Notes: generated by a model from the sequence alone, not told the origin. DNA of 64,000 nt from an uncultured Gammaproteobacteria bacterium (GCA_942491945.1 CALODD010000037.1:67500-131499); one strand, 5' to 3'. Numbered from the stretch's first letter, positions 3,628 through 36,696 are shown. A program made the numbers and translations.

Positions 3628-5061
3628 TTATTTCTGATTTCTGACGACGATGCTTTTGATTCTTTTTATCGCTTCATCGGCCGTTTGTATGCGGCGGCTA
3701 GGAGTTTTCATCAATAATTCCTGAATCACCATGTTCAACGGGCGCTTTGTATCTGGGAGACGCGGGATGTCGTCCGATACATGTGAGTACAGAATGTCAT
3801 TTACTGAACCTGAATTAAATGGAGGCTTTCCAGCCAGCATTTCATACAAAATGACGCCCATGAGATAGAGGTCACTACGACTATCTTCTGTATGTCCTTG
3901 TGCGCGCTCAGGACTACAGTAAGCAGGCTCATCAACGGCAGGAACTTCAGAAATATTACTCATGGCGTGTAACCGCCTGAATGCGCCGATGTCTGTAATA
4001 ACTGGTGTGTTTTCATCCCGAAATACCAGTTTATCTGGTCTAATATCCGAGACATAAAATCCGGCTGAGTGAATTTTCTGCAACGCCGACATCAGTTGCA
4101 AAAAGTATTTAATGGCTTCTTCTTCGGTCACGCCACGACGAGACAGACGGTCTGCCAATGTTTCGCCATGTAGTATTTCTTGCGTCACAATCAATCGAAA
4201 ATCGATAACCTGATAATCCAGCCAACGAATGATATTCGGATGATTCCAGGTCAGGATATCGCTGAGATCTTGCGTGCTTGCCTGTGACACGTCCTGCGCA
4301 CTCGCGGCTTTAAATGTCAGCAACTTGAGAAGTACCTTCTCAGACTCCCCCTCCTTCACTGCCTTAAAGGTCGTCGCATGCTGTCCTTTATCGATATATG
4401 AGATGATATTGTAACCGCCAATGGTTGCCTTACCGGCCAGAATGTCTTTGAAATCAAACGGCCATTCTTCGGCACCATGCAACATTGCCATTGCCAGATT
4501 AATTTCATGTTGGGTATGACGAGTGGCCAGTTCTAATTGGTCGGTTGGGCTAAGATCCTGCACAGGTTCTGAGACCTTTTTCTCACTTTCATATTCTTCA
4601 TCGGGGATATTTTTGAGCACGTCTTTAACGTACATCTCAGCTGTTTTCTTCAGCGGTGATTCGTAGCCGTGGGATTCCAGCACGGTTGAAACTAAACGTA
4701 CCAGCTGTTTGGAACGGATAGTGCGCTTAAAAAAGAAATCCTCAGCTCCAAGCTTCATGGCGCGAATCACATCGCGCGACATTTTCATGTCTTCTGGCGT
4801 TTTGTGAGAACTCATGAAAACCGTTGTCGGGAAGCCAGCTTCACTTCGATAACGTTCAAACCAATCGATACCGTTATCTTCCCCTTGCAGGTTGTCGATA
4901 ATGAGTAACTCGTAGTCTTTCCAGTTAACCATCACAGGCTCGCCCTGGATCTGAGGGTCGTATTCCTCCAGATGAACATCTGGAAAAATCTTTTCAATCA
5001 TATGCCGCAACACCTGACGGTGCTGCGCATGGCGATCAATAGTAAGAATCTTGTATTGCAT
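3628..5061 (-). CDS. Receiver (REC) domain - Ser/Thr protein kinase-like fusion with an atypical catalytic loop
   Basis: The N-terminal domain has an acceptor Asp (LLIIDNLQ), a conserved S and a conserved K. The kinase domain has VSDIRPDKL in place of HRDLKPxN, DIG for DFG and SPE for APE. The start ATG overlaps the mutY stop (TAATG). Confidence 0.7.
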   Translation of the reverse strand: MQYKILTIDRHAQHRQVLRHMIEKIFPDVHLEEYDPQIQGEPVMVNWKDYELLIIDNLQGEDNGIDWFERYRSEAGFPTTVFMSSHKTPEDMKMSRDVIRAMKLGAEDFFFKRTIRSKQLVRLVSTVLESHGYESPLKKTAEMYVKDVLKNIPDEEYESEKKVSEPVQDLSPTDQLELATRHTQHEINLAMAMLHGAEEWPFDFKDILAGKATIGGYNIISYIDKGQHATTFKAVKEGESEKVLLKLLTFKAASAQDVSQASTQDLSDILTWNHPNIIRWLDYQVIDFRLIVTQEILHGETLADRLSRRGVTEEEAIKYFLQLMSALQKIHSAGFYVSDIRPDKLVFRDENTPVITDIGAFRRLHAMSNISEVPAVDEPAYCSPERAQGHTEDSRSDLYLMGVILYEMLAGKPPFNSGSVNDILYSHVSDDIPRLPDTKRPLNMVIQELLMKTPSRRIQTADEAIKRIKSIVVRNQK

Positions 5062-6107
5062 TACAGACTTATTAACAAACTGGCGACGGGCTTTGGAAGA
5101 CCTAGCTCCTGCAATTTCTGTCTCGCAAACCATTCATAACCCGGTTCACTGACGCATGGGGTGCTGGAATCAACCTTGATATACCAAGGCTGTATATCAA
5201 GATGGTAATGACTAAACGTATGTCTAAAACTTATTCCCTTACTCATTGTGGTTATTTTTAATCCAAACTGATCGGAAATTATGTTCTGTATTCGCTCATC
5301 ATTCAACTCTCTGTCTACTTCCGGCAAACTCCATAACCCACCCCAAATTCCGACAGGTGGTCGCTTACAAAGTAGAAACTGTCCATCATAGTCACAGATC
5401 AACATATTCGTATGTTTACACGGTAACGTCTTCTTTGGCTTACGTGTGGGTAACTCTTCGGTCAGGTTTTGTTCGTATGCCTGGCAGTTATCGATCAAAG
5501 GGCAATCTCCACAACGCGGCTGTCTTCTCGTACAGAGTGTTGCACCCAGATCCATGATCGCCTGCGTATAATCGGCCAGTCGATCAACAGGCGTCAGCTG
5601 CTCGGCTAGCTGCCAGAGCTGTTTCTGTACGGCTGTAGTTCCCGTCCAGCCTTCGATCGCGGCATAGCGTGCCAGAACACGTTTAACGTTACCATCCAGA
5701 ATCACACCGCGCTCACCATAAGCCTGCGCCACAATCGCGCCAGCCGTTGAACGACCGATACCCGGTAATTGTTCAAGCCCTTCGACCGTTTCAGGAAATT
5801 TACCATTGTGTGATTTGACTACATCTTTCGCACAACGATGAAGATTGCGCGCTCTGGCGTAGTAACCCAGGCCTGCCCATAGCGCCATCACTTCATCATC
5901 TGAGGCAGATGCCAGTCCCCTAACAGTCGGAAACCGTTTAGTAAACTTCAGGAAATAAGGAATAACCGTTTTAACTTGTGTCTGCTGCAGCATGACCTCT
6001 GAGAGCCAGACACGATAAGCTGACCGATCTTGCTGCCAGGGTAAATCTTTACGTCCATGTTGATCAAACCAGCTCAGAAGACGCTGGCTGAAATGCGAGT
6101 CGCTCAT
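5061..6107 (-). CDS. mutY: A/G-specific adenine DNA glycosylase MutY
   Basis: 348 aa. HhH-GPD motifs, a 4Fe-4S Cys cluster (C..C..C..C) and a NUDIX-like C-terminal domain. Confidence 0.9.
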   Translation of the reverse strand: MSDSHFSQRLLSWFDQHGRKDLPWQQDRSAYRVWLSEVMLQQTQVKTVIPYFLKFTKRFPTVRGLASASDDEVMALWAGLGYYARARNLHRCAKDVVKSHNGKFPETVEGLEQLPGIGRSTAGAIVAQAYGERGVILDGNVKRVLARYAAIEGWTGTTAVQKQLWQLAEQLTPVDRLADYTQAIMDLGATLCTRRQPRCGDCPLIDNCQAYEQNLTEELPTRKPKKTLPCKHTNMLICDYDGQFLLCKRPPVGIWGGLWSLPEVDRELNDERIQNIISDQFGLKITTMSKGISFRHTFSHYHLDIQPWYIKVDSSTPCVSEPGYEWFARQKLQELGLPKPVASLLISL

Positions 6108-6713
6108 TTAATACAGGTCACCCGAATTGATAGTTGAGTCATCAACCTGTTGCAGACTGCAATCGGTTTTTCCCTGGTATTCGCATTCCATTCGTTGAAG
6201 CATACTCAATGTCGTTTCTTTCACCTGTGATTCCATCATGGTAGAGCCAATAAGCGGCGGCACCCAGAATGACGGCTGGCTTTCCGACTTGAAGCTAATA
6301 AGGCTTTGATGTTTGGCCAGCGGTTCTATCGTCCAGACAATATGGCCAAAATCAAAATCACTCTGTTCTGGTTCGATATCAAGGCGAATCTCGTTATCAG
6401 ATTCTTGCAACGTCAGGGTATTTCGATACTCAACACAAAATAATAAAACGCAGGTATAGGAGTGCTCTCTAATTCGACGAATGCCTGGTTGATCGGATGC
6501 AAGGTGCTCGACACTTTGTATAACGTCTTTCAGTACCACAACTCGATCAGGATCGGCTAAAACCTGCTTCGCATAGTTCGCACTGATATCGACTCTGGCC
6601 TGCAATTGCACTGTGTAAGTACCATTCTGCTCCGAGGCCGCATAATGTTCGATCTGAGCAGCCTGTGCACCGCTCATCAAAGCGATACACAAGGCTGCGG
6701 ACCGAATCCACAT
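6108..6713 (-). CDS. Secreted hypothetical protein (signal peptide), translationally adjacent to asmA
   Basis: N-terminal signal peptide ...SGAQAAQ. The start abuts the AsmA stop. No confident family assignment. Confidence 0.45.
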   Translation of the reverse strand: MWIRSAALCIALMSGAQAAQIEHYAASEQNGTYTVQLQARVDISANYAKQVLADPDRVVVLKDVIQSVEHLASDQPGIRRIREHSYTCVLLFCVEYRNTLTLQESDNEIRLDIEPEQSDFDFGHIVWTIEPLAKHQSLISFKSESQPSFWVPPLIGSTMMESQVKETTLSMLQRMECEYQGKTDCSLQQVDDSTINSGDLY

Positions 6714-9497: not shown

Positions 9498-10106
9498 TTG
9501 CTACGATCTACTATGTCAGCCAGCGACCTTAACCGTCTCCGCGAAGATATTCACTTCGAAACCACACTGTGTGAACAACCACTGAAATTCACCTCAACCT
9601 GGGGTATTTTTTCACCACGTGAGATCGATAGCGGCACCGACCTGTTGTTACGCTATCTCGAAGTTGATGCGGATAGCGATTGCCTGGACCTGGGCTGTGG
9701 CTATGGTCCTATCGGCATCACCATGGCCAGACTTGCGCCACAGGGTTCAACGCTAATGGTCGACAAGGACTTTATGGCCATTGAATATTCGAAAAAAAAT
9801 ATTGCGCAGAATCAGGTCAACAATGCACAGGCTCAGCTCAGCAACGGCTTTGATCATATTGATTCACAACGACGCTTTGATGTCATCGCTTCCAATATCC
9901 CGGCCAAAGTCGGTAAGGAACTGTTAACTCTTATATTGCACGATGGAAAACAGCGGCTCAATCCAGGGGGACGATTTTATGTTGTCACCGTGAATGGGCT
10001 ACGACAGTTTATGAAACGTTATATGACCGAGATCTTTGGTAACTATAAAAAGCTTAAACAGGGCAAGAATTATACCATCGCCTGCGCGACTCGAACTGAC
10101 GATTAA
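9498..10106 (+). CDS. Class I SAM-dependent methyltransferase (RsmC/RlmG-type small MTase domain)
   Basis: PREIDSGTDLLL, LDLGCGYGPIG (motif I) and NIPAKVG (NPPF-like motif IV). Confidence 0.65.
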   Translation: MLRSTMSASDLNRLREDIHFETTLCEQPLKFTSTWGIFSPREIDSGTDLLLRYLEVDADSDCLDLGCGYGPIGITMARLAPQGSTLMVDKDFMAIEYSKKNIAQNQVNNAQAQLSNGFDHIDSQRRFDVIASNIPAKVGKELLTLILHDGKQRLNPGGRFYVVTVNGLRQFMKRYMTEIFGNYKKLKQGKNYTIACATRTDD

Positions 10107-11461
10107 ACCAGACCTTCAGGTACATCTTCAGGGCTGATATCTTTTAAATGCCCAATAACCTGCGCACCATTATCAGGCCGATCCTCTGGTGACTTCGCCA
10201 ACAACACTTCGATAAGACCGTTCAATCCATCCCACTTATCAGTCAAAGCTGGGATCGGCTCACGTACATGCGCTGTAAATACCTGCAATGATGTCTTGCC
10301 TGTGAACGGGCGCTTACCTTCCAGCATTTCATACAGAATAACGCCCAGTGCGTACAGGTCGCAACGCTGATCAATCTTTCCGCCGACGGCCTGTTCAGGA
10401 CTAATGTAATACGGTGTACCGATGATCTGTCCTTCTTTCGTTAGATGCTTATCATGGCTATCAAAGGCCTTGGCAACACCAAAATCGACCAGCGCTAATG
10501 CGCCGTCTTCACGAAATAATATATTCGCTGGTTTTAAATCACGGTGCAGAATATTTAACTCATAAGCGGCCTGTAATCCTGCAGCGATTTGTGCCGCGTA
10601 CTGGATAGCTTCGGTCCGTGATACGCCTTCGCGAATTCTCGATTTTAAATCTCCACCTGGCAGGTATTCCATGACATTGTAAAAATATTCACCCTCAGCA
10701 ACATGCTCAAGAATTCGAACCACGTTCGGGTGATGAATTTCATTCAGTAATTCAAATTCCTGCGCAAATCGACGGGTTGAAACATCATCGATGAGCTGAT
10801 TATCCATTAGCTTTAGAGCATATAGCTGCTCGGATTGTCTGTGCCTGACTTTAAACACCGAAGCCGCACCTCCCATACCCAGATATTCCAGCACATCATA
10901 AGCACCCAGTCTGGCTTTACCTTCGGCGATCTCCAACATCGTGAACGGCCAGGTATTGTCCATCACCTCTTCGGGTAGCGTCAGCCATGCCCCAGAGAAC
11001 GGTGCATTAATTTGACTCATATCAGAAGGCTCGTCATCGACTTCCATGCTTTCTTTAGTGGCTTTCAATGTCGCAAGCCGCGCCAGTGATTCACGCAAGG
11101 TCTGGATATCCAGCATACTCATGGCCAGATAATCCAGCGCACCATGTCGCATCATCTCAGTGGATCGCTTCATGCTGTCTTTAAAGTCGATCACGATCAC
11201 TCGGCCAGCGATATCACTCTCGAGTTGCCCAAGAAAATCACTCGTAAACTCAAATTCCTTACCCGTCACCAGGAAAACAATATCGATAGAACTCAGGACT
11301 GAGGCGTTTAAATCTTGCAACGCCTGCCAGGAAAGACTGGTGGATGCAGAAAAAGCTTCGGTGAATAATGGTTCGAGCGCAGGCCGTAAACGAATATCAT
11401 CCAGCGCAATCAGCGCGGTATCAGCCTGCATGGCTGACATACGGTCATACTGCCCCGTCAC
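10103..11461 (-). CDS. Pseudo-receiver domain - Hanks-type Ser/Thr protein kinase
   Basis: Canonical HRDLKPANIL, DFGVAK and GTPYYISPE motifs. The N-terminal ~140 aa are REC-like but lack a clear acceptor Asp (IVFLVTGKEF). Confidence 0.8.
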   Translation of the reverse strand: MTGQYDRMSAMQADTALIALDDIRLRPALEPLFTEAFSASTSLSWQALQDLNASVLSSIDIVFLVTGKEFEFTSDFLGQLESDIAGRVIVIDFKDSMKRSTEMMRHGALDYLAMSMLDIQTLRESLARLATLKATKESMEVDDEPSDMSQINAPFSGAWLTLPEEVMDNTWPFTMLEIAEGKARLGAYDVLEYLGMGGAASVFKVRHRQSEQLYALKLMDNQLIDDVSTRRFAQEFELLNEIHHPNVVRILEHVAEGEYFYNVMEYLPGGDLKSRIREGVSRTEAIQYAAQIAAGLQAAYELNILHRDLKPANILFREDGALALVDFGVAKAFDSHDKHLTKEGQIIGTPYYISPEQAVGGKIDQRCDLYALGVILYEMLEGKRPFTGKTSLQVFTAHVREPIPALTDKWDGLNGLIEVLLAKSPEDRPDNGAQVIGHLKDISPEDVPEGLV

Positions 11462-11515
11462 GAAAATCTCCCTTATTAAATAAACTTAAAGTAGATCGTA
11501 CTGTAATTTTAGACC

Positions 11516-13519
11516 CTAACTGGCTTTAAGCAGTTTCTTTTCAATGGTATCTGGAATTGCCTGAGACAGCGCCTGAATCAAATCCTGTCCTGTGGCATAG
11601 CGATCTTCGCGTTCCTTTGCCAGTAAACAAGTGACTACATCATTCAATGGATCCTGTGGACTGGACAGTTGAGGCACTTCACCATTGACGTGCAGCCGCA
11701 TGATCTCGAGCGAAGATTCACCTCGATAAGGACGAACACGTTCCAGCATTTCATACAGAATGACACCAAGGGCATACAAATCACTACGCCCATCTAGCTG
11801 ACTTCCCACGGCCTGCTCTGGGCTCACGTAATGCGGTGTTCCAACGACCTGTCCTGAAAACGTTAGAGTCGTTTGTCCTTCAGCCATCAGTTTAGCTATA
11901 CCAAAATCAAGAATCGCCAGTTCACCATTGTCTCGAAACATAATATTAGAGGGCTTTAAATCACGATGCAGAATGTTCTTTTGGTGAGCTGCGTGCAGCG
12001 CTGAAGCAATCTGAGCTGTAAACCGAACCACATCCTGTCGATCAATACCTTCTTTGATGCGATCTTTCAGATCACCACCCGGAAAATATTCCATGATTGA
12101 ATAAGCACTATTCTGATATTGAGCAAGGTCACGAATTTTAACGACATGTTCGTGATTGACTTCTTCAATCAACTGATAACCACGCAAGAAGCGTTTCTGC
12201 CCCTGCTGATCACTGGTATCCATATCAAACAACTTCATAGCAGACAGTTGTTGTGTATCCTGGTGCTTCACTTTAAATACTGATGCTGTGCCCCCTACTG
12301 CAACAAACTCAATCACATCATAATTATTCAGTGAAGCTTTACCCGCTTCAATATCTGCAGGCGTAAAGGGCCAGCGCTGCCCCATACTAAATTCCACAGC
12401 CTTACCGTGATGTTCAGGTAGCTCGGCCTGCTCCGCCACATTATCACGTTCAAGAATAGACATCAGACCGGTAGTAATAAACGACGCCTCCGACGGTCGA
12501 TCGTTTAGTTCAATTTCCGGTTCATAGGCGTCCATCTCACCGGTATAACCAGTCTCAACATATGGCTGTGATTTGCCTTCGCGCAATTTATTCGGCACAT
12601 CATGTTCATCGGTATTACGTTCTACGATATCGATTAAACCGGGTGTTATAAATGACGCTTCAGATGGTTCATCTATTTCATATTCATCGTCATCATTGGC
12701 GGCCAGACTGTCATTAATATCCGTGGCCTCGAGGCTTTCAGCACGATATACCCGGTCATCCGGTAACTCGCTGACGCCGTAGGCCTGATTGTTCAGGCTG
12801 TGATCTTCCAGCTCATTAGTAACGACAGGTTCAAGCGTGGTGGGATCCAGCCTTGGCAACACCTCGGTAGGCTCATCGGTCATGCCGTCATCTTCCGGCA
12901 GTGCATCGAACCTGATTGGTTCGGCAGTTTTCGTAGACTCGGTAATTGGTCGAACTTCAGGTAACAGATCGGTGGTGGGTTCTGGCTCTGAGGCAGGTTC
13001 TACAATATTTTCTTTCGCGGCTTCTACTGGCTCCACGGATATGGGCTGGGCTTCACTGACATTTTCATCTTGCTGAGCCTTGACTGGTTGAGGAAAACGT
13101 TCTTCACGAAGATTAGCCGCCATCAGCAAGGCACGTGTTAATCGTTGTGCGCTAACTTTGGTGATATCAATATAATCAGCGCCGCCTGCACGAACCATAT
13201 CACCGGCATCATCGACCGTTGCTGACCGATCCAGAAAAATGGCCATCGGCAACGAAACCTGAGTGATCAAATCGAAATACCAGCTACGTATTGCTGGCTT
13301 ATTTTCGGACATATCGACAATGACCAGATCGACTTCAGACCAGTCATAGTCGTGCTCTGGCAATCCCTGCTCGAATGGATCAATGGCCGAAAACTGCGGC
13401 TTATCTAACAGGCGCAATAACGCCACGGCCAAACCTCGGCGATATTTCACCACTGACCCAATCACAAGAATGCGTTTAAACCCGCAATCCGCAAGATTGT
13501 CGATCATTTCCACAGCCAT
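11516..13519 (-). CDS. Receiver-like domain - acidic repeat linker - Hanks-type Ser/Thr protein kinase
   Basis: HRDLKPSNIM, DFGIAK and GTPHYVSPE motifs. N-terminal REC-like domain (VDLVIVDMSE). An internal ~35-aa repeat (..PSEASFITPGLIDIVERN.. and ..PSEASFITTGLMSILERD..). Confidence 0.8.
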   Translation of the reverse strand: MAVEMIDNLADCGFKRILVIGSVVKYRRGLAVALLRLLDKPQFSAIDPFEQGLPEHDYDWSEVDLVIVDMSENKPAIRSWYFDLITQVSLPMAIFLDRSATVDDAGDMVRAGGADYIDITKVSAQRLTRALLMAANLREERFPQPVKAQQDENVSEAQPISVEPVEAAKENIVEPASEPEPTTDLLPEVRPITESTKTAEPIRFDALPEDDGMTDEPTEVLPRLDPTTLEPVVTNELEDHSLNNQAYGVSELPDDRVYRAESLEATDINDSLAANDDDEYEIDEPSEASFITPGLIDIVERNTDEHDVPNKLREGKSQPYVETGYTGEMDAYEPEIELNDRPSEASFITTGLMSILERDNVAEQAELPEHHGKAVEFSMGQRWPFTPADIEAGKASLNNYDVIEFVAVGGTASVFKVKHQDTQQLSAMKLFDMDTSDQQGQKRFLRGYQLIEEVNHEHVVKIRDLAQYQNSAYSIMEYFPGGDLKDRIKEGIDRQDVVRFTAQIASALHAAHQKNILHRDLKPSNIMFRDNGELAILDFGIAKLMAEGQTTLTFSGQVVGTPHYVSPEQAVGSQLDGRSDLYALGVILYEMLERVRPYRGESSLEIMRLHVNGEVPQLSSPQDPLNDVVTCLLAKEREDRYATGQDLIQALSQAIPDTIEKKLLKAS

Positions 13520-15517: not shown

Positions 15518-15537
15518 TTCCAAAGTCATAGACGTTC

Positions 15538-16458
15538 ATGGAACTCACGCTATGCATGATCGTCAAGGACGAAGAAGACAATATCGCTGACTGTCTGCGA
15601 CCGATACACGATCTGGTCAGTGATATTCAAATTATTGATACGGGATCGAGTGATCGTACGGTCGAAATCCTGCAGGGTGAGTTCAATATACACCCACGCA
15701 CTATCCTATTAAGAGACCGACATTGCTTTAGCTTTGGTGGTGCACGAACACTCTGTTTCCAACAGGCAAAAACAGACTGGATAATGCTGCTGGACGCCGA
15801 TGAAAGAATCGAACGAGGAGAATTAGAACAACTCATCGAATACCCGATGCCACAGAAAACTCATGGCTTGTTTGTGAGATGGGTCACACAGACTAAAAGC
15901 CACACGATTGAAGATTACAAACTTCCAATCTTCTCGAAAGATACCCGACACCGCGGTCGCATGCATGACACTGCTCAACCTGACTTCAGAAAGAAAGGTC
16001 GTATTGCAAAATGGTATAACGATTTAACTATCAGTCATTTTCCCAAAGAATCCAGCCGAGCCGACAAATCTAACTGGCGCTTAAAAGTCATGTCCTGCGG
16101 TTTACGCTATTCACCAAAATGGTATCGACATAGCTGGTTTCTCGGATACACCTATTACAAGGACAATGATTTAGACAATGCCCTGCAGCATCTACAACGT
16201 TGCGCTAATTCTAATTCTGAACGTTTTCCTGTTGAGCGTATAAATAGCCTGATGGTAATGACAGAAATTTATGCGCAGCAGAATGACATGATGTTAGCTA
16301 GTGCCTCTTTAAATAAGGCATTACAACTATATTTATCACATGAAAATGATTTTGAAGTAAGCATCAATTTTCGAATGAAACACTGGCTATACCTAACATC
16401 ACAATATCTAACTCATGGTGAGTTACACCATATCAAAGCCTATGAGTTTTCGTACTAA
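15538..16458 (+). CDS. Family 2 glycosyltransferase with C-terminal TPR-like helical region
   Basis: MIVKDEEDNI...DTGSSDRT...LDADE, typical GT2 DxD-type N-terminus. Confidence 0.6.
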   Translation: MELTLCMIVKDEEDNIADCLRPIHDLVSDIQIIDTGSSDRTVEILQGEFNIHPRTILLRDRHCFSFGGARTLCFQQAKTDWIMLLDADERIERGELEQLIEYPMPQKTHGLFVRWVTQTKSHTIEDYKLPIFSKDTRHRGRMHDTAQPDFRKKGRIAKWYNDLTISHFPKESSRADKSNWRLKVMSCGLRYSPKWYRHSWFLGYTYYKDNDLDNALQHLQRCANSNSERFPVERINSLMVMTEIYAQQNDMMLASASLNKALQLYLSHENDFEVSINFRMKHWLYLTSQYLTHGELHHIKAYEFSY

Positions 16459-17849
16459 GACATCAACTCCGACCTGAAATCCTCATACTTGCCTGCGGCG
16501 CTGCGCGGTACGTCAGAAACCTGATTTACCTTAATCGTCATTCCCGGCAAGTCCTGTTCAAACATTCTCTGGAGCTGCATCTGCTCAGTATTTGTCAGCT
16601 CTCGTGTACAAACAAGATCAGCACGAACAAGATCGTATTGCTGCTGCACAATTTGAAATTGTTTCACTGGTGCAATACCACGCAGCCGAGGTTCATTAAT
16701 CAAAGGCCAGAATGACGTACCATCTTCTCGGAGAAATATATTCCTGTATCGACCCATGATTTTGTTGAGTACTTTTAGACCACGTCCACAGGAACATGGT
16801 GTATGCCCAACTTCAGCCAGATCACCGATTTCATAACGTATTAATGGCATAGAAAAATTATGTAGATCTGTTACCACGACTTTACCCGTTTCGCCCGGTG
16901 CGCAAGGCTGGCCTTGCTCGTTCAATACTTCCATAAACACATCTTCTTCCATAATATGATAATGACTATGTTCCGGACACTGGAGTGCCAGATAGCCAAC
17001 TTCCCCACAACTATAGCCATCGACTAAATCCATACCAAGCACTTGCCTCGACAGTTCCCTCAAACCCTCAGGAATCTGTTCACTAAACGTCATGACCTGT
17101 TTTAACTTAGGTGCGTTATTATTTTCCTGCCAGTAATAAAGCAAGGTTTTTAGATTAGAGGGGTAGGTCAGTAAGTAATCAATAGATTCCGCTTTAATCC
17201 ACTCTGTCTGATGCGCGACATCGGCATAAATACTCAAGCTGGCAGCTTCGCCCGTCACGAATACTCGAGCTGCCGCTTCCCCCCAACGATCATGACTGTA
17301 CGCCGTCGGATGATCGCCATCATGAAAATCCGTATAGCGAATTGCACCAAATTTTGCATGCAAATCCCGCTCATGCCATAGATGACCTCGCAAGGTCATG
17401 GCTTGCCAGAACATATCGGTTAACTGGTTTTTTATAGAATAGACCGGCATCCCGGTTGAACCAGAGCTATGACTGAAAATTGATAGACCATGCTGGCGAG
17501 ATGGGAAAGCACTTAGCAGTTCTTTCTGATGGTGTTGTAGCTGTTCTCGAGTCAGAACAGGTAACTGCAACCAACGGTCCATTGATAGTGGAAAATTAAA
17601 ACTTAGATTCAGCTCTCGATAATGCTGCTGATAAAAAGGTACTGTATCTACTGCGTGTTCCAGCAGGTGTTCAAGCTGAAATAATTGCAACGTCTGTATT
17701 TCACTGGCTGACAACCATTGGCTTTTTTCGAGTTGATATTGCACCGAAGCCATCGCATTCGCCTGATCACTCTGCTGCACGGGCCAGACGATACCTGGGA
17801 CATGTAACTCATCACTTCGAAACGTATGATTCAAATCAGGCAACCGCAC
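16455..17849 (-). CDS. PaaK/CapK/F390-synthetase-like adenylate-forming enzyme (paralog 1)
   Basis: SSGSTGMPV P-loop and YSCGEVGY. The C-terminus GKYEDFRSEL is shared with the paralogs. Overlaps the next gene by 14 nt. Confidence 0.65.
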   Translation of the reverse strand: MRLPDLNHTFRSDELHVPGIVWPVQQSDQANAMASVQYQLEKSQWLSASEIQTLQLFQLEHLLEHAVDTVPFYQQHYRELNLSFNFPLSMDRWLQLPVLTREQLQHHQKELLSAFPSRQHGLSIFSHSSGSTGMPVYSIKNQLTDMFWQAMTLRGHLWHERDLHAKFGAIRYTDFHDGDHPTAYSHDRWGEAAARVFVTGEAASLSIYADVAHQTEWIKAESIDYLLTYPSNLKTLLYYWQENNNAPKLKQVMTFSEQIPEGLRELSRQVLGMDLVDGYSCGEVGYLALQCPEHSHYHIMEEDVFMEVLNEQGQPCAPGETGKVVVTDLHNFSMPLIRYEIGDLAEVGHTPCSCGRGLKVLNKIMGRYRNIFLREDGTSFWPLINEPRLRGIAPVKQFQIVQQQYDLVRADLVCTRELTNTEQMQLQRMFEQDLPGMTIKVNQVSDVPRSAAGKYEDFRSELMS

Positions 17850-22164: not shown

Positions 22165-22236
22165 CCTGCCATCCAGAGATGACTTTAATCCGTTTCTGAA
22201 TTAAATAATTCTAGTTCAGTTTGTAATAACTGCTGT

Positions 22237-23505: not shown

Positions 23506-23687
23506 TACTCCCCCCAGAGATGATAAAAGTGCGCTAGTCGCATAATGTATTGCATACGGACTACCATTAAATAGATAGCAATAATTCACAATATGATAAA
23601 TGTACTACCAATCCAGATATAATAGGGTAATAGCCTACATATTTAAATAGAAGATTTCAAAAGTCTACACACTAATTAACCGGATAA

Positions 23688-24356
23688 ATGTTACTTAAAA
23701 TTAACCATCACAAGCTCAGAGAGCCGTTGTCACTTCGTCAGGGCTCCAGCGATGAACACAACTATCAACAGATTTTTGTCGACGATGAATACTGTATTGA
23801 GACGAAGATTGCCCCAAAAACCATAGTAGATCTTGGGGCGAATATCGGTTTGTCAGCGATCTGGTTTGCTTCGCACTACCCAGACAGCCTTATTATTGCA
23901 ATTGAACCAGAACGGTCGAATTACCAATTACTAGCGGAGAACGCCTCTGTCTACGAAAATATTCGGACACTGCGTGCCGCAGTCTGGTTTGAAGAGACTG
24001 AGCTTCATCTTACAGATCCGGGAAAGGGCCACTGGGGGTTTCAAACTCAAGAACAAGACTCCCCTAATGCATTCGATCGCATCAGCACCGTAACTGTCCG
24101 ATCAATTATGAAAAACCACAATATCAATCACATCGATATTCTAAAAATCGATATTGAAGGCGCTGAAGTCGAATTACTTTCAGATAATTCCCAATGGATC
24201 TCTCAGGTGAATATGATCATCATTGAACTGCATGATCGTTTTCGCGAGGGGTGCCAGGAAGCCCTGCATAACATTGCACACCATTTTGATCAGCAATGGC
24301 AACAGGGCGAAAATATCGTACTGGCGAAATCTTCGTTTATTAACAGGGCGGCCTAA
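23688..24356 (+). CDS. FkbM-family SAM-dependent methyltransferase
   Basis: VDLGANIGLSAIWFA, typical FkbM motif I. Confidence 0.65.
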   Translation: MLLKINHHKLREPLSLRQGSSDEHNYQQIFVDDEYCIETKIAPKTIVDLGANIGLSAIWFASHYPDSLIIAIEPERSNYQLLAENASVYENIRTLRAAVWFEETELHLTDPGKGHWGFQTQEQDSPNAFDRISTVTVRSIMKNHNINHIDILKIDIEGAEVELLSDNSQWISQVNMIIIELHDRFREGCQEALHNIAHHFDQQWQQGENIVLAKSSFINRAA

Positions 24357-25735
24357 TCCAGCTCACTCATGAAATCTTCGTATTTACCAGATGCTGACCT
24401 GGGAATATCATCGACGTAGCGATAGTTGATTTTGAATGGATAACCCAGGCTCTCTTGCAAGACGTCATCCATTTTTCGAGTCTGCTCATAATCCAGAGAT
24501 TCTGACAACACCAGCTGCAATTCCAGTGTATCCAATGTTTTCTGGATTAATCGGTACTGACGAATATCTGCTATCGCATTGAACCGTCCATCCTCCATCA
24601 TCGGCCAGAAATAAGCACCATCGGGGCGTCGTAACATATTTCGTGCACGACCATAGACGCGGTTCAGCACAGGCAGGGTTCGCCCGCAACTACAGGCATT
24701 ACCCAGTTCTGCGTAATCCCCCACTTCGTATCGAATTAAGGGCGTTGCGAAACTGTGCAAAGAGGTTATGACCACTCGGCCTGTTTGTCCTGGTAAACAA
24801 GGTTCATCATTCTCATCGAGAATTTCGATGTAATTGGCTTCGGCTAGCTGATGATAATGGTCCTGTTCGGGGCACTGCAAAGCCAAATGACCCGTCTCTT
24901 GTGCTGAATAAACATCTTGCAGTTCCGCGCCAAGCACTTCTTCGCACAGTTGCCGCAAACCATCAGGCAACTGTTCTGCCATGGTCACAACGACCTTTAT
25001 CGACAGTGATTCATCACGAGACTGCAGAATACGACAAATTGCCCGTAGGTTGCTCGGGTAGGTCAACAAGTATTGCGGTCGCTCTTTCAATAACCAGTCG
25101 ACCTGCTCGCCAACGTCATCAATCACGTTTTTAACAGCACACTCGCCACTCTTAAACGCCATTGCTGTCGCTGAACCCCAGTCATCCAGGATGTACTCAG
25201 TCGATGCCTCGTGCGTATTCCCCAGGAAACGGATAACTGCAACTTTGTCACCTACTTCCCGCTGATGCCAGATATCGTCACGCATACTCTGCGCCATCCA
25301 CATCAACTGATTAACTTCCGTTCGATACACCGTAATCGATTTACCCGTTGAGCCCGAGGTACTGACTGAACTAATACCGCCATGCTCTTCAGGAGTGCGG
25401 TTGCAGCTAATCTCTGATAGGTTCTGCTGCAACTCGGTACGCGTGAGTATCGGTAACCTGCACAGGAAATCCGCATCAATCTTCATCCCCTGCCGATAAT
25501 TAACCTGATCTAGTCGTTCTCGATACCAGAGACTGTGCTTCCAGGCATGTTCAAAGAGCAATCCCAGCTGACGAAACTGCAGCCACTGAATTTCCTCCAG
25601 CGGCATTCGCTCCGATTGCTGCAGCTGGCGTTGCATAGCGAGTAATGTCGCATTCTCTGATGTAGGGACACCGGGCCAGACGATATTGGGAATTGCGGTC
25701 TTCACTTGCATCGCACTAGTGTGCCGGAACGACAT
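24353..25735 (-). CDS. PaaK/CapK/F390-synthetase-like adenylate-forming enzyme (paralog 3)
   Basis: TSGSTGKSI P-loop and C-terminal GKYEDFMSEL. Confidence 0.65.
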   Translation of the reverse strand: MSFRHTSAMQVKTAIPNIVWPGVPTSENATLLAMQRQLQQSERMPLEEIQWLQFRQLGLLFEHAWKHSLWYRERLDQVNYRQGMKIDADFLCRLPILTRTELQQNLSEISCNRTPEEHGGISSVSTSGSTGKSITVYRTEVNQLMWMAQSMRDDIWHQREVGDKVAVIRFLGNTHEASTEYILDDWGSATAMAFKSGECAVKNVIDDVGEQVDWLLKERPQYLLTYPSNLRAICRILQSRDESLSIKVVVTMAEQLPDGLRQLCEEVLGAELQDVYSAQETGHLALQCPEQDHYHQLAEANYIEILDENDEPCLPGQTGRVVITSLHSFATPLIRYEVGDYAELGNACSCGRTLPVLNRVYGRARNMLRRPDGAYFWPMMEDGRFNAIADIRQYRLIQKTLDTLELQLVLSESLDYEQTRKMDDVLQESLGYPFKINYRYVDDIPRSASGKYEDFMSELD

Positions 25736-27683: not shown

Positions 27684-30197
27684 ATGGCAATTTTGGGATC
27701 ATTCAGTCTTGGCGGCGCGCTAGACAAAATACTGACCACAGGCGATATTGAAGCGCCTGCAGTTCAGTCCGCGCTGAAGAAACTGACTGATAACCCCAAG
27801 GCCGCGATGGAGAAAGTGCTCAATGTAATCGCTTCCGGTCCGAGACTGCATCACTCAACAGCGTATAAGCTGGTTAGCCGCTTACTGGACAACACAACGG
27901 TTGGCATGGTGATGCAGGCATTACCCTCCTTTCCCGATGACGCTCAGGCACAAATTGCTACAACTCTAAATACCAGCAATCAATATGACCCACATTTGTT
28001 ACTACCGTATTTGCGCACACCACTAAATACCTCACTCTGTAAAGATATGCTCACAGCGCATCGCCGAGATTTTAAAGCTGCAAAATTACTCTCCGCAGTC
28101 ATCAAAATTGACCCGGATTTACAGGACAATGTATTCGAACTCATTCATGCCAATGTCGATGAAACAGCGCTTGCTGAAGCGATCGCCCTGAGTCATAGCA
28201 AAGACGACAATATTCGAACACAGGTCACCAGCATCATCGCCGAGTTTGACAATCCGGCGGCCCAGGAAGCACTGATGACCCTGTTGAATGACAACAGTCA
28301 AAAGGTTCGTCTTAATGCCCTGCGAGGTCTTGTCAAAATACGTGCTGATCTAGCAACAGGTGATTTATTCCGTTTGATGTCAAAAGCAAAGAAAGAAGAA
28401 TCGCCTTTAGTAAAGGCATTAATTAGCTGCTCCACCGACCCTAAGCTACTAGAAAACTTCATCGAGGCACTATTCGCACCGAAAGGCAAAATGAAGCCAC
28501 TTGCCATCGCTGGCCTGTCTGAATTAATGAATAAAGACGTGCTATATGAAATTTTTTACGAATTGCATGATAAGCCAGAAGCCACGCAGGATTCTATGAT
28601 CCGTTCACTACAGGATGCAGGTGGCGAAAAGTTTCTGACGGCCGCCAATGAATTACTCAGTCACTACGACGAAGATATACGACGACTGGCGGCGAATGCA
28701 TTCCATGAACAGGATACCGGTGAAGAAACTGTGATTGAAGGTATGTTGAATGGCCTAGCCGTCGACATACCTAACAATTTAAAGCTGGAATACATTGAAA
28801 AACTCGGACACGCTGGTGTCACTAGCGCAGTCGATCCACTCATTAAAATTTTAGGCAGCGAAGACACCGAACTATTCGCGCCTTCGCTAGATGCACTGGC
28901 AAGTATTGGCGACCCAAAAGCACTGGCTGCGGCTTTTGAAGCTCTGAACGCCAAAGACATTGAAATCCAGACAAGTGCGCTGAAGTGTCTAAATGCCATT
29001 ACACCAGACAAGTTTGCTGAACGCTTACGTGACCAGTTATTAGAGCTATCCAACCATGTCCATGAAGATGTCATAGAGGAACTAGTCAATACGGTTGAAA
29101 CACTGACTGACAAGCACAACCTTCGCACCACAACGCATTACAAACGCACGATTGAGTCGCTTAAAAAATCCGATAACGATGAATTTGGATTTGCGCCCGA
29201 AGCTTCGTCAGCGAATAGCATGTTTGCTCCTGAAGAAGAATCGAGTTCGTCTTACTCCATGTTCGGTAAGGATGAAGCTGATAATGGCGTCTTTGGCGTG
29301 GTCGATGAAACCGATAGCGGATCTGGAGATGAATCAGCTGAGCCAGCAGAAGAACCTGTCTTTGCGGTCAATCTCGAAGAAGGGCTAGTACTGAATGACC
29401 GCTATGAGTTGATCCGAGAAATTGGCCGTGGTGGTTATGGTTCCGTCTGGCTAATAAAAGACAACTTCATCCAGGAAGAAATGGTGATGAAGTTTCTTCA
29501 TCAACAGCTGGTATCAGACGATATTGCTATTGAACGTTTTATTCGCGAGCTACGACTGGCACGAAAGATTACTCACAAGAACATTATTCGTTTGTTCGAC
29601 TATCTCGATCTAGGCAAGGTCACTGCGATCTCCATGGAATACTTCGAGGGCGCAGCACTCTCCAGCCTCATCAAAGACGGGCCGATAGAAATTAATGCGA
29701 TTGCCAAGATTGCATCCATCACCTGCGATGCCCTGCATTCGGCGCATGAAGCCGGCGTTATTCACCGCGATATGAAACCGGCAAACATTCTGGTCGACAC
29801 TAACCATGAAATAAAAATTGTCGACTTCGGCATTGCAGCGGCCAGCAAACATGCAGAATCCAGACTAACCCGTACCGGTACTCTCATTGGTACGCCGACC
29901 TATATTTCACCCGAGCAAATTCAGGGTAAAGCGGTTGATGCCAGAACGGACATCTATAGTCTGGGCATCATCATGTACGAAATGTTATCCGGCTCACCGC
30001 CATATCTGGCTGATGACCCGATGGCACTAATTTTCATGCATGTTGAAGGCAGTGCACGACGAATTGATGACGTCAATCCGCTGGTTCCAAAGGAATTCGC
30101 TGATATCGTTCATAAGTGCATATTGCCTGATCCTGATGAACGCTTTCAGAGCATGCTAGAACTACGCGAAGCAATTTCTCAAACAGGTTTAGCCTGA
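27684..30197 (+). CDS. HEAT/PBS-lyase-repeat protein fused to C-terminal Hanks-type Ser/Thr kinase
   Basis: N-terminal ~530 aa of HEAT-like repeats. Kinase motifs GRGGYGSVW, HRDMKPANIL, DFGIA and GTPTYISPE. Confidence 0.8.
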   Translation: MAILGSFSLGGALDKILTTGDIEAPAVQSALKKLTDNPKAAMEKVLNVIASGPRLHHSTAYKLVSRLLDNTTVGMVMQALPSFPDDAQAQIATTLNTSNQYDPHLLLPYLRTPLNTSLCKDMLTAHRRDFKAAKLLSAVIKIDPDLQDNVFELIHANVDETALAEAIALSHSKDDNIRTQVTSIIAEFDNPAAQEALMTLLNDNSQKVRLNALRGLVKIRADLATGDLFRLMSKAKKEESPLVKALISCSTDPKLLENFIEALFAPKGKMKPLAIAGLSELMNKDVLYEIFYELHDKPEATQDSMIRSLQDAGGEKFLTAANELLSHYDEDIRRLAANAFHEQDTGEETVIEGMLNGLAVDIPNNLKLEYIEKLGHAGVTSAVDPLIKILGSEDTELFAPSLDALASIGDPKALAAAFEALNAKDIEIQTSALKCLNAITPDKFAERLRDQLLELSNHVHEDVIEELVNTVETLTDKHNLRTTTHYKRTIESLKKSDNDEFGFAPEASSANSMFAPEEESSSSYSMFGKDEADNGVFGVVDETDSGSGDESAEPAEEPVFAVNLEEGLVLNDRYELIREIGRGGYGSVWLIKDNFIQEEMVMKFLHQQLVSDDIAIERFIRELRLARKITHKNIIRLFDYLDLGKVTAISMEYFEGAALSSLIKDGPIEINAIAKIASITCDALHSAHEAGVIHRDMKPANILVDTNHEIKIVDFGIAAASKHAESRLTRTGTLIGTPTYISPEQIQGKAVDARTDIYSLGIIMYEMLSGSPPYLADDPMALIFMHVEGSARRIDDVNPLVPKEFADIVHKCILPDPDERFQSMLELREAISQTGLA

Positions 30198-32878: not shown

Positions 32879-34156
32879 TTACGCGCTAGACACCCAGCTG
32901 GTTTTGACCTGATTTCGTCCTGCGTCTTTTGCTTCATACAGCGCACGATCCGCTTCTGTGATTAATATCGAGTAATCATCGGTTTTTGCTTCATCCACAA
33001 CCATTGAACCAATACTGACCGTGACATACTCAGCCGCTGCAGATGATTTATGTGGGATAGCCAGGGCTTCCACAGCCTGCCTGACTTTGTCCGCGACTTT
33101 CAATGCACATTCTCGTGAACAGTCGGCCAGTATCAGGGCAAATTCTTCACCGCCATATCGTGCAGCCGTATCGCCTGGACGTCTAGCACAGTCACTGAGA
33201 ACTTGAGCAATTGTTTTCAACACTTCATCACCGGCCTGATGCATATAAGTATCGTTATAGGCCTTAAAGTAATCGACATCGATGATCAGTAAAGCGATCG
33301 GTCGCTCATCGCGACGACAGCGCGCCCACTCTCGAGCAATTCCCGCATCGAAACTACGGCGATTAGCAATTAATGTCAGTGAGTCAATCGAAGAGAGATA
33401 CTCCAGTCTGCCGACTGCTTCCTCCAGCTCAGCCTTAACCTTCTGTAAATCTTTTTCAATAATCTTACGTTCGGATAGCTCGGAATCCAGTTCAGATTTA
33501 GCCACCTGCAACTCATCATTCAAACGTTTTTGCTCAAGACGTAATTCGATAGCTTCACGATAACTATGATTCAGGCGCCAGGCTGAAATAATGAGGTATG
33601 AACCATATACCACTGTCATGATGCCGATAATAATCCCCGACATTCCCCCTGAGACTAGCCAGACCGCAGCCATTGGCAACAGGATCGGAAAAATAAAACC
33701 GTAATAGGCATAGACCAAGGCTGCATTAGAGGTCAGTGCACCACCAGCCATACCTGTCATCATCAGTACACCCATGAGTGGATATAACTGATCATCTCCA
33801 AATGGCATGAAGGAAAATAAGCCCCAGGCCACGCCAAGCAAGCATGTCACCAGCACGTAATGACGGGCACTTACCCGTGCCTGTTGCGCATCAAATGAGG
33901 CAGAGTCTGCATCTCTCAGGACATAGAATCGCAGTGCATTAATGGCCATCACCGCTGCAAACCACCACCAAAGTAACGCAATATCAACATCGTGAGCAAA
34001 AAACCACACGGCACCAATCGATACCAGAAAATTAGAGGCAATTGCCAGCGGCAACTGCTGCCGCACCATACGAACCAGTTCGATTAACGCCGCTTCCGAC
34101 TTTGCAAAATGTAATCCAGCTGAAACCAACACCACCCCCCAGTTTACCTGTCGCAC
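32879..34156 (-). CDS. Membrane-anchored diguanylate cyclase (GGDEF domain)
   Basis: N-terminal multi-TM sensor region. RYGGEEF active site. Confidence 0.8.
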   Translation of the reverse strand: MRQVNWGVVLVSAGLHFAKSEAALIELVRMVRQQLPLAIASNFLVSIGAVWFFAHDVDIALLWWWFAAVMAINALRFYVLRDADSASFDAQQARVSARHYVLVTCLLGVAWGLFSFMPFGDDQLYPLMGVLMMTGMAGGALTSNAALVYAYYGFIFPILLPMAAVWLVSGGMSGIIIGIMTVVYGSYLIISAWRLNHSYREAIELRLEQKRLNDELQVAKSELDSELSERKIIEKDLQKVKAELEEAVGRLEYLSSIDSLTLIANRRSFDAGIAREWARCRRDERPIALLIIDVDYFKAYNDTYMHQAGDEVLKTIAQVLSDCARRPGDTAARYGGEEFALILADCSRECALKVADKVRQAVEALAIPHKSSAAAEYVTVSIGSMVVDEAKTDDYSILITEADRALYEAKDAGRNQVKTSWVSSA

Positions 34157-35161: not shown

Positions 35162-35785
35162 ATGAATAACAAAGTTGATAATGCAGTAAAACGACTACAA
35201 AACATCTTACCTCTGGAACAAAACTTAACCGCGTTATCTACCCAGGATATCAACGACTACCACAGTATTCTTCGTCAGTTTCTGGAGCATGGTCAGGTAA
35301 CCCAGAGCAATATCTACGCTGCCAGTAAATTAGCGGAACTCGGCTTTATTGTACTCAACGAAGAGAATGGTATTACCGGCGCTTACCCGTTTACCTCCGA
35401 GGATAGAATACACAAGGTACATTCGCCCTATGGGATATCACGTTGTATGTGTGCACTCGATGCGTTGGCGATCGCTCCAATGTATGAACTCACCACAACC
35501 GTCATGTCTCAATGCCATAGTAGCCGCGCTGAAATCATGGTTCAGCAGGATAACAAGCAAATCATCAATCCAGATGAATTAGACGAGACGGTGTTTGCCA
35601 TAAACTGGAATGCCTCATGCGCGGCGACCAGTTGCTCTGATTCACTTTGTGGGGAAATGATATTCCTGAGAGGGGAAAATCACATCGAAAACTGGCTGAA
35701 TGAAGACAAAGAACAACGAGAAATCTTCAATCTTACAGAGGCTGTTGAATTCGCGGCTGCGTTCTTCAAACCCCTCGTTGACTGA
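35162..35785 (+). CDS. MerB-like organomercurial lyase family protein (orphan)
   Basis: RCMCALDALAIAPMYEL aligns to the MerB YAWCALDTLIFPALIG region (catalytic Cys/Asp). A second Cys cluster (WNASCAATSCSD) sits where MerB C159 lies. Confidence 0.55.
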   Translation: MNNKVDNAVKRLQNILPLEQNLTALSTQDINDYHSILRQFLEHGQVTQSNIYAASKLAELGFIVLNEENGITGAYPFTSEDRIHKVHSPYGISRCMCALDALAIAPMYELTTTVMSQCHSSRAEIMVQQDNKQIINPDELDETVFAINWNASCAATSCSDSLCGEMIFLRGENHIENWLNEDKEQREIFNLTEAVEFAAAFFKPLVD

Positions 35786-35805
35786 CTACGCTAGCAAATA
35801 CCCGG

Positions 35806-36696
35806 TCAGCTAGGTAATGAGATAAAACGACCGGACGTATCGAGTGTTTTCGCGTTCGGATATAACTCACGCAAGGCTTTCTCAACATCAAAAGCAAAGG
35901 CTGTGGCCGATTGATAGCGATCAGAATCTGCTTTTGCCATCGCCCGTTTAACGATGTGTTCTACAACATCCGGAATACCATCACGCAGCGAGCTCATTGG
36001 CTCGGGATCATCGTGCATAATCTGAAAAGCCGTATGGCGGTTATCGAACGGATATTTACCGGTGAGAATCCGATACATGGTTGAGCCCAGGGCAAAGATG
36101 TCTGTTAGCTCAGAGATACGACGCTCGCGGTCAAAATGTTCGGGGGCCATATATGCAATAGTACCGGTATCCCGCGAAGGCGGCTCCTCGATTTTATGCG
36201 ACACACCAAAGTCCATAATCTTCACCATACCCTGGGCTGGGTGGTACATGATATTGCCGGGTTTGATATCGCGATGTATGACACCGTGATAATGGATATA
36301 TTCCAGTCCAAGACAGCACTTGTAGATAATATCCAGGGTCTCTTCTACATCTAGCGGCCCGGTGGCGTCCATATAGTCCTGAACAGAACGTCCAGGTACA
36401 TACTCAACAACCATGTAATCGATCATGCCATTATCGATCACATCATAAATAGTAATGATATTGGGGTGCGCGAATTTACCAGCGATGCGAGCTTCGTGAT
36501 AAAACTCTTCGATCACCATTTTTAAGTCGTCTTTGCTCAAGGCTTCCGCCTTGGCTTTCTTGATCGCTACTTCACGGTCAAGCAATGGATCATAAGCACG
36601 GTATACGATGCCTGAAGCACCTTCACCGGCTTTTGTCTTCAATTCATAACGACCAATGTAGTTATTTGAACCAGAATTTCTGGCTGGAGCTCCCAT
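35806..36696 (-). CDS. Hanks-type Ser/Thr protein kinase (stand-alone catalytic domain)
   Basis: GEGASGIVY, AIKK, HRDIKPGNIM, DFGVS and APE motifs. Confidence 0.82.
   Translation of the reverse strand: MGAPARNSGSNNYIGRYELKTKAGEGASGIVYRAYDPLLDREVAIKKAKAEALSKDDLKMVIEEFYHEARIAGKFAHPNIITIYDVIDNGMIDYMVVEYVPGRSVQDYMDATGPLDVEETLDIIYKCCLGLEYIHYHGVIHRDIKPGNIMYHPAQGMVKIMDFGVSHKIEEPPSRDTGTIAYMAPEHFDRERRISELTDIFALGSTMYRILTGKYPFDNRHTAFQIMHDDPEPMSSLRDGIPDVVEHIVKRAMAKADSDRYQSATAFAFDVEKALRELYPNAKTLDTSGRFISLPS

Follow-up and report, generated by a model that had tools for sequence, protein, structure and literature searches.

Most known links between bacterial Ser/Thr kinases and two-component systems consist of cross-phosphorylation from one protein to another. 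Single chains that combine Response_reg and Pkinase domains are listed in censuses of response-regulator outputs, and these have an N-terminal CheY-like domain, a linker and a C-terminal Pkinase domain, the same order as in three proteins considered here (K1, K2, and K3). The three are encoded, together with two further kinase-fold proteins (K4 and K5), in a 64,000-nt stretch of DNA from an uncultured Gammaproteobacteria bacterium (GCA_942491945.1, CALODD010000037.1:67500-131499), hereafter the window. No characterised fusion of a receiver (REC) domain to a Hanks-type kinase or to a pseudokinase was found in the literature searched. Unlike the intact Response_reg plus Pkinase proteins, K1-K3 never pair a complete receiver site with a complete kinase site (0/3). 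We assign a probability of about 0.6 to the reading that a conserved part of the core chromosome, rich in kinase genes, lies in the window and that its receiver-kinase paralogues have reciprocally decayed halves. The fused architecture is already known from databases; the reciprocal loss among paralogues is the new part.

Degenerate versions of both domains have been described separately. Pseudo-receivers form the N-termini of CpaE/TadZ and occur in CikA (PsR), AmiR, and RitR (PMC12632262, PMC4395418), and where they were searched these two reviews make no mention of a Hanks-kinase output. The former cites yeast Rim15, a protein kinase carrying a pseudo-receiver domain (PMC12632262). Like K2 and K3, Rim15 joins a Ser/Thr kinase to a non-phosphorylatable receiver-like domain; this is meant as an analogy and not as a sign of shared ancestry, and Rim15 differs in being eukaryotic and of the AGC/Greatwall type. 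The receiver-like domain of Rim15 is C-terminal. Among degraded kinases, seven bacterial pseudokinase families have been defined: ActPs1-3, GLW, CP1, DYD, and DLHK (PMC12599244; bioRxiv 10.1101/2025.01.12.632604). Their defining features include GLW in place of HRD with a transmembrane segment, a DLHK motif with a helicase, a COG3899 ATPase partner, a DYD motif with a membrane anchor, and an actinobacterial distribution (PMC12599244). Receivers go unmentioned in the kinase atlas and the pseudokinase review (bioRxiv 10.1101/2025.01.12.632604; PMC12599244).

A listing of open reading frames (ORFs) reproduced, to the exact coordinates, the five Hanks-type kinase genes of a first-pass annotation, and all five products exceed the gathering score of Pfam Pkinase PF00069 (31.7 bits; E 3e-30 to 3e-53). 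K1 (3628-5061, minus strand, 477 aa) consists of a receiver (~4687-5061), a 'WPF' motif (4456-4464), and a kinase-like domain (~3670-4410) that scores 105.7 bits (E 3.5e-30) and is predicted to be a pseudokinase. K2 (10103-11461, minus strand, 452 aa; 180.1 bits) comprises a putative pseudo-receiver without the acceptor Asp (~11057-11425), a short linker, 'WPF', and a canonical kinase domain (~10172-10900). K3 (11516-13519, minus strand; 171.3 bits) has a putative pseudo-receiver (~13100-13480), an acidic disordered linker of ~240 aa, 'WPF', and a kinase domain (~11591-12316); the ORF in the window encodes 667 aa, versus 665 aa for the database protein. K4 (27684-30197, plus strand, 837 aa; 181.4 bits) carries a HEAT-repeat arm, an acidic Ser-rich linker, and a canonical kinase domain, and K5 (35806-36696, minus strand, 296 aa; 173.6 bits) is a kinase domain only. 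The β3 Lys (VAIK), the HRD Asp, the catalytic-loop Lys and Asn, and the DFG Asp are all present in K2, K3, K4, and K5; catalytic competence of K1-K5 is here a prediction from motifs only. All five ORFs are intact and consistent with their orthologues, have the G+C content of the core chromosome, and are flanked by housekeeping genes outside two genomic islands described below. Since no 19-residue window of K1-K5 shows transmembrane-like hydropathy (Kyte-Doolittle maximum 1.52), all five are predicted to be soluble and cytoplasmic, unlike the common PknB-type receptor kinases.

The N-terminal domains were aligned by orthologue group (A1, K3 group; A2, K2 group; A4, K1-like). A Pfam scan returned no Response_reg match for K2 or K3, and K1 scores ~22.1 bits (E 1.8e-4), below the gathering score of 30.2; Response_reg matches at E <= 0.01 are found in 11/11 K1-clade members, the best at 2.2e-10. 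When the K2 N-terminus alone served as query, a word-indexed homology search gave no match, nor did a genome scan with exact K2 peptides. As profiles, A4 matches 258 solved receiver sequences (best E 1.8e-13), A2 matches the FleR, PmrA, NtrC1, and FixJ receivers over the whole domain (best E 2e-7), and A1 is weakly similar to solved receivers (E 0.3), its five best matches all being receivers. Comparison with hhalign joins A1 to A2 with a probability of 99.1% (E 7e-19) and A4 to A1 with 99.2% (E 6e-20). The K3 and K2 N-termini, as modelled with AlphaFold2 (pLDDT 87.8 and 82.9, respectively), both adopt a (βα)5 fold in the order β1-α1 to β5-α5, and for each model the 50 best Foldseek matches in the PDB are all CheY-like receivers or CpaE/TadZ pseudo-receivers (TM-score 0.5-0.7). 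These data indicate that the N-termini of K1-K3 are receivers by descent and, as modelled for K2 and K3, likewise in fold. The first-pass proposal of three receiver-like N-termini, for which a failure to match any α/β fold had been named as the counter-evidence, is thus borne out.

The three groups share a stretch from α1 to β3 that reads '..YDP....LP....(F)xW..(Y)DL(V/I)..D', and an element 'WPF..(D/E)I..GKA' is invariant just ahead of the kinase domain in all of them. K1, K2, and K3 appear to be paralogues of one REC-'WPF'-kinase subfamily. Both PF00072 and PF00069 are present in 12 of the 120 best database matches to K2; the kinase domains of relatives that have the two Pfam domains share 42-45% identity with that of K2. 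In P0147 and P0149, two canonical members of the subfamily, the receivers are of the DD type (or near it), the 'WPF' motif is shared with K1-K3, and the HRD and DFG motifs are intact. P0149 lies downstream of a partial mutY gene and is followed by a second REC-kinase gene and a convergent 4HB_MCP-HisKA-HATPase-REC-Hpt gene. These features suggest that the mutY-linked gene began as a genuine receiver-kinase. A neighbour-joining tree of kinase domains (100 bootstraps) recovers the K1 clade on a long stem (100/100), K2 and K3 with P0027, P0036, and P0037 (100/100), and K1 with P0147 and P0149 (53/100), and places K4 and K5 outside the REC-kinase clade. In this tree and by position, only K2 and K3 (48% identical, same strand, 54 bp apart) would be local duplicates, and K1 an older paralogue at a separate conserved site. 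The 'local expansion' of the first-pass annotation therefore applies to the K2/K3 tandem and not to K1, K4, or K5. Its view that such fusions are rare in characterised gammaproteobacteria likewise stands only in that characterised examples were not found in the literature searched; in databases the architecture is not rare, and the genes are syntenic in related metagenome-assembled genomes (MAGs).

The receiver quintet and the catalytic motifs were tabulated over 12 K1-clade, 14 K2-group, and 9 K3-group proteins, with acidic-pair states read from the group alignments and from hidden Markov model alignments to solved receivers. The K2 and K3 sets were drawn from 90% clusters and the K1 set, by a different search, from 50% representatives, so that diversity within clades is not directly comparable between them; comparisons of domains within the same genome sidestep this difference. 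Across 30-65% identity, the K1 clade keeps D9 (the Asp after β1), D56 (the acceptor position), S84, S85, K112, and W200-P201-F202 invariant. Because D9, D56, S84/S85, and K112 do not vary, the K1 receiver site appears to be under continuing selection.

The kinase half of K1 tells a different story. In the window copy the G-loop reads DKGQHA, VLLK stands at the VAIK position, VSD replaces HRD, DIRPDK replaces DLKPxN, and DIG replaces DFG. The HRD Asp is gone in 11/12 clade proteins, the window copy being its sole keeper; the others have IGN, VGE, AGN, AGY, AGA, IGR, and the like, within catalytic loops that read x-G-x...P. The catalytic-loop Lys is missing from 12/12, the DFG Asp is retained in 3/12, and the Mg-binding Asn is lost in most (Lys in the window K1); the G-loop is degenerate and the β3 Lys mostly retained. 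The invariant C-lobe residues include P384, E385, D393, R395, and R457; by motif, the APE Glu, the subdomain IX Asp, and the subdomain XI Arg are invariant, and no catalytic residue is. Because HRD, the loop Lys, and mostly the Asn and the DFG Asp are lost while the fold and the C-lobe and substrate-binding residues are kept, we read the K1 clade as a pseudokinase whose fold and C-lobe surface are probably still used.

In this respect the clade resembles ActPs1-3, GLW, CP1, DYD, and DLHK, in which a whole family has a degraded catalytic loop and DFG and keeps the kinase fold. Unlike those seven families, K1 shows no GLW or DLHK motif, transmembrane segment, COG3899 or helicase domain, has an N-terminal receiver, and retains the β3 Lys in most members; Response_reg and Pkinase are the only Pfam domains found in the clade. 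Judged by their published features, the K1 clade would lie outside the seven catalogued families.

The K2 and K3 groups keep the other half. HRDLKPxN and DFG are present in 14/14 K2-group and 9/9 K3-group proteins, and all kinase motifs of the K2 group are canonical, as is the VAIK Lys of the K3 group. At the acceptor position K2 has Val (Gly, Ala, or Val across its group), the β4 Thr (T87) is changed to Asp in the group, and the β5 Lys (K109) is Met in K2 and Ser, Ala, Gly, or Met across the group. The K3 group retains the acceptor (β3) Asp, with the acidic pair replaced by Ser and Val, and K109 by Ile, Leu, or Met. K2, without the Asp, and K3, without the acidic pair and the Lys, are accordingly classed as pseudo-receivers. 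The first-pass annotation had counted one plausible acceptor Asp and two degenerate domains; the Asp is in fact kept in two proteins (K1 and K3), and it is only K1 that also keeps the Ser/Thr and the Lys. K2 resembles the described pseudo-receivers in the missing acceptor Asp. K3 is like them in lacking the metal-binding acidic pair and the Lys, and unlike the aspartate-less ones in keeping the Asp. CpaE pseudo-receivers are among the best structural matches of the modelled K2 and K3 N-termini, and both differ from CpaE/TadZ, CikA, AmiR, and RitR in being fused to a Hanks kinase.

Conservation also differs by domain. The K3 pseudo-receiver is 72-88% identical among orthologues, versus 62-72% for the K3 kinase domain, and because it is the better conserved of the two it is presumably functional in some non-phosphotransfer manner; the α4-β5 segment, ATVDDAGDMVRAGGADYID, is nearly invariant in K3. 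For K2 the N-terminus is 30-33% identical versus 62-65% for the kinase, and the linker measures 38 aa versus 140-265 aa among full-length orthologues. Short motifs recur in the linkers of both groups: 'SEASF(I/L)TTGLMSILER' (twice in the window) and 'TDEPTEVLPRL' are conserved in the K3 group (K3 residues ~140-380), and in the K2 group 'APFSGAWLRMPDSVGEQAWPF' occurs along with 'TEV(M/L)P' or 'TQVLHMP' as repeated units. In their T-x-x-L/M spacing these motifs are reminiscent of phospho-Thr docking sites. K3 and K2 are separated by a 54-bp spacer (11462-11515, minus strand) with an AAGGGAG Shine-Dalgarno sequence ahead of the GTG at which K2 begins; the minus strand between the two genes shows no site resembling a promoter or a terminator. 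The two genes probably form one transcript, in agreement with the first-pass annotation.

K1 is placed in a conserved operon. Its start at 5061 agrees with an identical 477-aa product (P0002) in the protein collection and with the Met shared by its orthologues; the ATG and the stop codon of mutY share a base (TA[A]TG), and K1 is translationally coupled to mutY. Directly upstream is mutY (5061-6107, minus strand; Pfam HhH-GPD, NUDIX_4, and EndIII_4Fe-2S) and directly downstream is yggX, for an Fe2+-trafficking protein (3289-3552, minus strand; Iron_traffic E 3.8e-35). A K1-clade gene is followed by yggX in 5/5 contexts (the window, L002, L008, L011, and L012), and mutY precedes it wherever upstream sequence exists (the window, L002, L008, and L011), L012 excepted. 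The wider gene order, cysS-hisI-K3(-K2)-rsmC-like MTS-bcp-asmA-x-mutY(-K1-yggX), is found in L001-L005, L008, and L011, with the K3-K2 tandem in L002 and L005. Relatives with CysS at least 72% identical are all MAG or metagenome proteins, and a genome scan with the K3 N-terminal alignment returned only four MAG loci, labelled 'Gammaproteobacteria bacterium' or Minwuiaceae. The closest relative, with CysS 85% identical, is the Logan contig SRR14866217_7412 (L007 and L008), which has K1, K3, K4, and K5 in the same places. Compared with L007/L008, three parts of the window (15538-25735, a GGDEF gene at 32879-34156, and a merB-like gene at 35162-35785) are insertions, and the ancestral kinase neighbourhood was therefore probably tighter, at about 22 kb.

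Two contigs carry tandems at the mutY-linked site. In L012 (1-1985), two K1-like genes stand in tandem ahead of yggX, and in L010 (883-6677), mutY is followed by a tandem pair of canonical REC-kinase genes, beside a hybrid gene for a histidine kinase (HK) with an HPt domain. The site therefore appears to have been duplicated repeatedly, in different lineages. A 201-aa protein without a Pfam or NCBIfam match (6108-6713) lies between asmA and mutY in the window and also in L002, L008, and L011.

A number of observations weigh against reciprocal decay among K1-K3. The grouping of K1 with K2 and K3 is based on architecture and the 'WPF' element, and the inclusive clade has a bootstrap of 34/100. 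K3 is present in the deeper MAGs L001/L004 (a 2.5-Mb chromosome) and L003, but no K1 lies at their mutY locus, and K2 is missing from the closest relative, so that K1, K2, and K3 would not be an obligate set. The second acidic-pair residue is variable across the K1 clade and is Arg in the window copy, which gives a quintet of 4/5 (D9, Arg for the second acid, D56, S85, and K112); with this acid missing, the K1 receiver may be non-phosphorylatable too, and it is borderline as a pseudo-receiver. The α-C Glu, the usual partner of the β3 Lys, is Gly in 9/9 K3-group proteins, which leaves the kinase activity of K3 uncertain. Genes for HK, PP2C, or FHA proteins were not found in the 64 kb by Pfam scans of essentially all ORFs of at least 100 aa; the first-pass annotation had suggested a search for partner PP2C phosphatases or FHA proteins. 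Missing canonical residues are not proof of inactivity, WNK-type kinases and other 'pseudokinases' having been found active.

The last of these contrary points concerns the window copy of K1, which retains the β3 Lys (VLLK), the catalytic-position Asp (VSD), and the DFG Asp (DIG). It could be a weak or atypical but real kinase, with cis coupling confined to K1, and some pseudokinase families do bind ATP non-canonically (PMC12599244). However, the catalytic-position Asp occurs in no other clade member, Asn taking its place even in the closest orthologue (P0126, 65% identical); the Mg-binding position and the G-loop are altered as described; and the Pkinase score of ~105 bits compares with 171-181 for K2-K5. 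Because catalytic residues are lost in its orthologues, selection does not seem to be maintaining catalysis in the K1 clade, and we consider a catalytically active K1 unlikely.

Direct coupling of REC to the Ser/Thr kinase had been the first-pass interpretation of the fusions: each protein would be a true response regulator in which HK-driven Asp phosphorylation activates its own kinase domain. Relatives with both an intact receiver and an intact kinase do exist (P0147, P0149, P0247, P0079, and P0124), one canonical relative adjoins a hybrid HK-HPt gene, and the acceptor Asp is present in K1 and K3. In the window, however, K2 has no acceptor Asp, K3 has neither the acidic pair nor the conserved Lys, and K1, which has the sole plausible receiver, carries it on a kinase-like domain that lacks HRD, loop Lys, and loop Asn, the DFG Asp also being missing from most of its orthologues; the 64 kb hold no recognisable HK gene to drive it. 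The interpretation therefore fits none of the three well, since the K1 receiver sits on a decayed kinase and the K2 and K3 kinases sit on receivers without phosphotransfer residues, and we regard it as improbable. We infer that none of K1-K3 could by itself couple Asp phosphotransfer to Ser/Thr phosphorylation in cis; because no protein keeps both active sites, any such link would have to act in trans. Cis coupling may hold for canonical relatives such as P0149.

Plain decay, with K1 and the K2 N-terminus becoming pseudogenes without function, has several features of the window in its favour: other genes are split (uvrC into three ORFs, an integrase into two, FIST into two), the K2 N-terminus evolves fast and its linker has been cut, and K2 is absent from the closest relative. 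Yet the five kinase ORFs are intact, K1 holds its receiver and C-lobe residues invariant and its operon position fixed over five contigs, and the pseudo-receiver is the best conserved part of K3. Decay without function thus seems to us a poor prospect. That the kinases are mobile or anti-phage defence systems rather than core signalling can be set aside as very improbable, since the sub-threshold NCBIfam similarities to the MADS6 and BREX PglW kinases are generic kinase-domain matches far below cut-off (99-162 vs 460 bits and 35-90 vs 990 bits) and the genes, in spite of two integrase-bearing islands in the window, keep a conserved synteny among housekeeping genes, outside the islands and at core G+C.

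A PASTA-kinase reading was rejected separately. The PASTA kinase model NF033483 is the best-scoring NCBIfam match for K1-K5, at 117-286 bits against a cut-off of 450, and no NCBIfam model claims any of the five. K2-K5 have their catalytic motifs in common with the PASTA kinases PknB/Stk1; K1-K5 differ in being soluble, with no transmembrane helix and no PASTA match, and in carrying their regulatory parts N-terminally rather than C-terminally.

Under reciprocal decay, and building on the domain homology, fold, residue states, synteny, and paralogy observed above, we infer the following about catalytic competence or its loss, the role of the pseudo-receivers, and the interplay of K1 with K2 and K3. 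The subfamily plan would be a receiver, a linker, an invariant 'WPF..I..GKA' element, and a kinase, with both halves intact in other bacteria; in the lineage of the window, K1 would keep the receiver chemistry and K2 and K3 the kinase chemistry. K2, K4, K5, and probably K3 are predicted to be active soluble Ser/Thr kinases. The K2 and K3 pseudo-receivers may regulate by dimerisation or partner binding through the highly conserved α4-β5 face, and the long acidic linker with its conserved short motifs may also control K3 and K2. K1 would be response-regulator-like with a non-catalytic output, its kinase fold serving as scaffold or allosteric partner.

A more specific proposal is a split relay, in which an HK or a small phosphodonor phosphorylates K1 Asp56 and the K1 pseudokinase then binds and allosterically activates K3 and/or K2. 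We regard this relay as speculative, with the odds well against it. The contact could be between kinase folds, by analogy with eukaryotic pseudokinase-kinase pairs, or between receiver and pseudo-receiver. Because K1 is fixed within the mutY-yggX operon, the input to such a relay would be tied to oxidative or iron stress.

The locus amounts to a natural dissection of a receiver-kinase fusion, with three paralogues in one genome and the chemistry split between them. If reciprocal decay is correct, it would add a receiver-controlled bacterial pseudokinase family to the seven catalogued, provide a pseudo-receiver that acts as regulatory module of an active Hanks kinase, and tie a kinase-fold protein, in a testable way, to the conserved mutY-yggX operon for oxidative damage and iron. 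If these roles are not confirmed, the locus would still show cleanly how paralogues in an uncultured lineage sub-functionalise when their domains decay reciprocally.

K4 and K5 appear to be independent soluble kinases unrelated to the REC-kinase clade. In K4, Pfam HEAT_2 (67 bits in three stretches; cut-off 27.7) and HEAT (26.1 bits; cut-off 23.5) are matched, and HEAT_2, HEAT, and Adaptin_N together span residues ~106-492 (~27981-29168). An acidic Ser-rich linker of ~75 aa leads to the kinase domain at residues 574-822 (29403-30149). The HEAT-repeat kinase of the first-pass annotation is thus present, although the ~530 aa of repeats given there become an N-terminal arm of ~570 aa, of which ~400 aa are detectably HEAT-like. 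The K4 orthologue in L007 is 67% identical in the same trmB-K4-fetA setting. K5 lies 36 bp downstream of a slyD-like FKBP gene (36733-37233), and its orthologue in L007, 93% identical, likewise follows an FKBP gene.

Genes near the kinases include mutY, yggX, bcp (peroxiredoxin), fetA/fetB-like ABC/UPF0014 genes, a cytochrome c gene, and the slyD-like FKBP gene; a REC-GGDEF gene lies at 37600-38754, in addition to the inserted GGDEF gene. The inserted ~10-kb segment at 15538-25735, in the cysS-thiG interval, encodes a GT2 glycosyltransferase, two AMP-binding-like enzymes, a type I phosphodiesterase, an FkbM methyltransferase, a TPR_Slam-like protein, and two ORFs without a Pfam match (19404-20789 and 20878-22164). 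It appears to be an inserted gene cluster, possibly for surface or lipid modification.

The region beyond yggX resembles the remnant of an island integrated at tRNA-Phe (1816-3233). Here the tRNA-Phe gene (3158-3233, minus strand) is followed by a phage-type integrase in two frames, with Int_N at 1816-2751 and the catalytic part at 2465-2803; a 427-aa ORF of unassigned function lies at 536-1819. A block at ~43000-50600 has a G+C content of 0.37-0.42 versus ~0.47 and carries an intact integrase (46821-47813), an AbiC-like abortive-infection protein (44613-45440), a DUF5677 protein, and several uncharacterised ORFs. It abuts a tRNA-Leu/Cys/Gly cluster (50589-50980) and probably represents another genomic island, which may include defence genes.

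The split uvrC gene (51670-53469) comprises three ORFs, with GIY-YIG and UVR at 52675-53469, UvrC_RNaseH at 52458-52817, and UvrC_RNaseH_dom at 51670-52383, and FIST_N (40728-41351) and FIST_C (41392-41847) are in separate adjacent ORFs. The splits in uvrC, the integrase, and FIST could be either real pseudogenes or assembly indel errors. No LuxI gene adjoins that of a LuxR-type autoinducer-binding regulator (54224-55033); its neighbour encodes a metallo-β-lactamase-fold protein (55123-56067), and the pair could represent a LuxR solo together with a lactonase-like enzyme.

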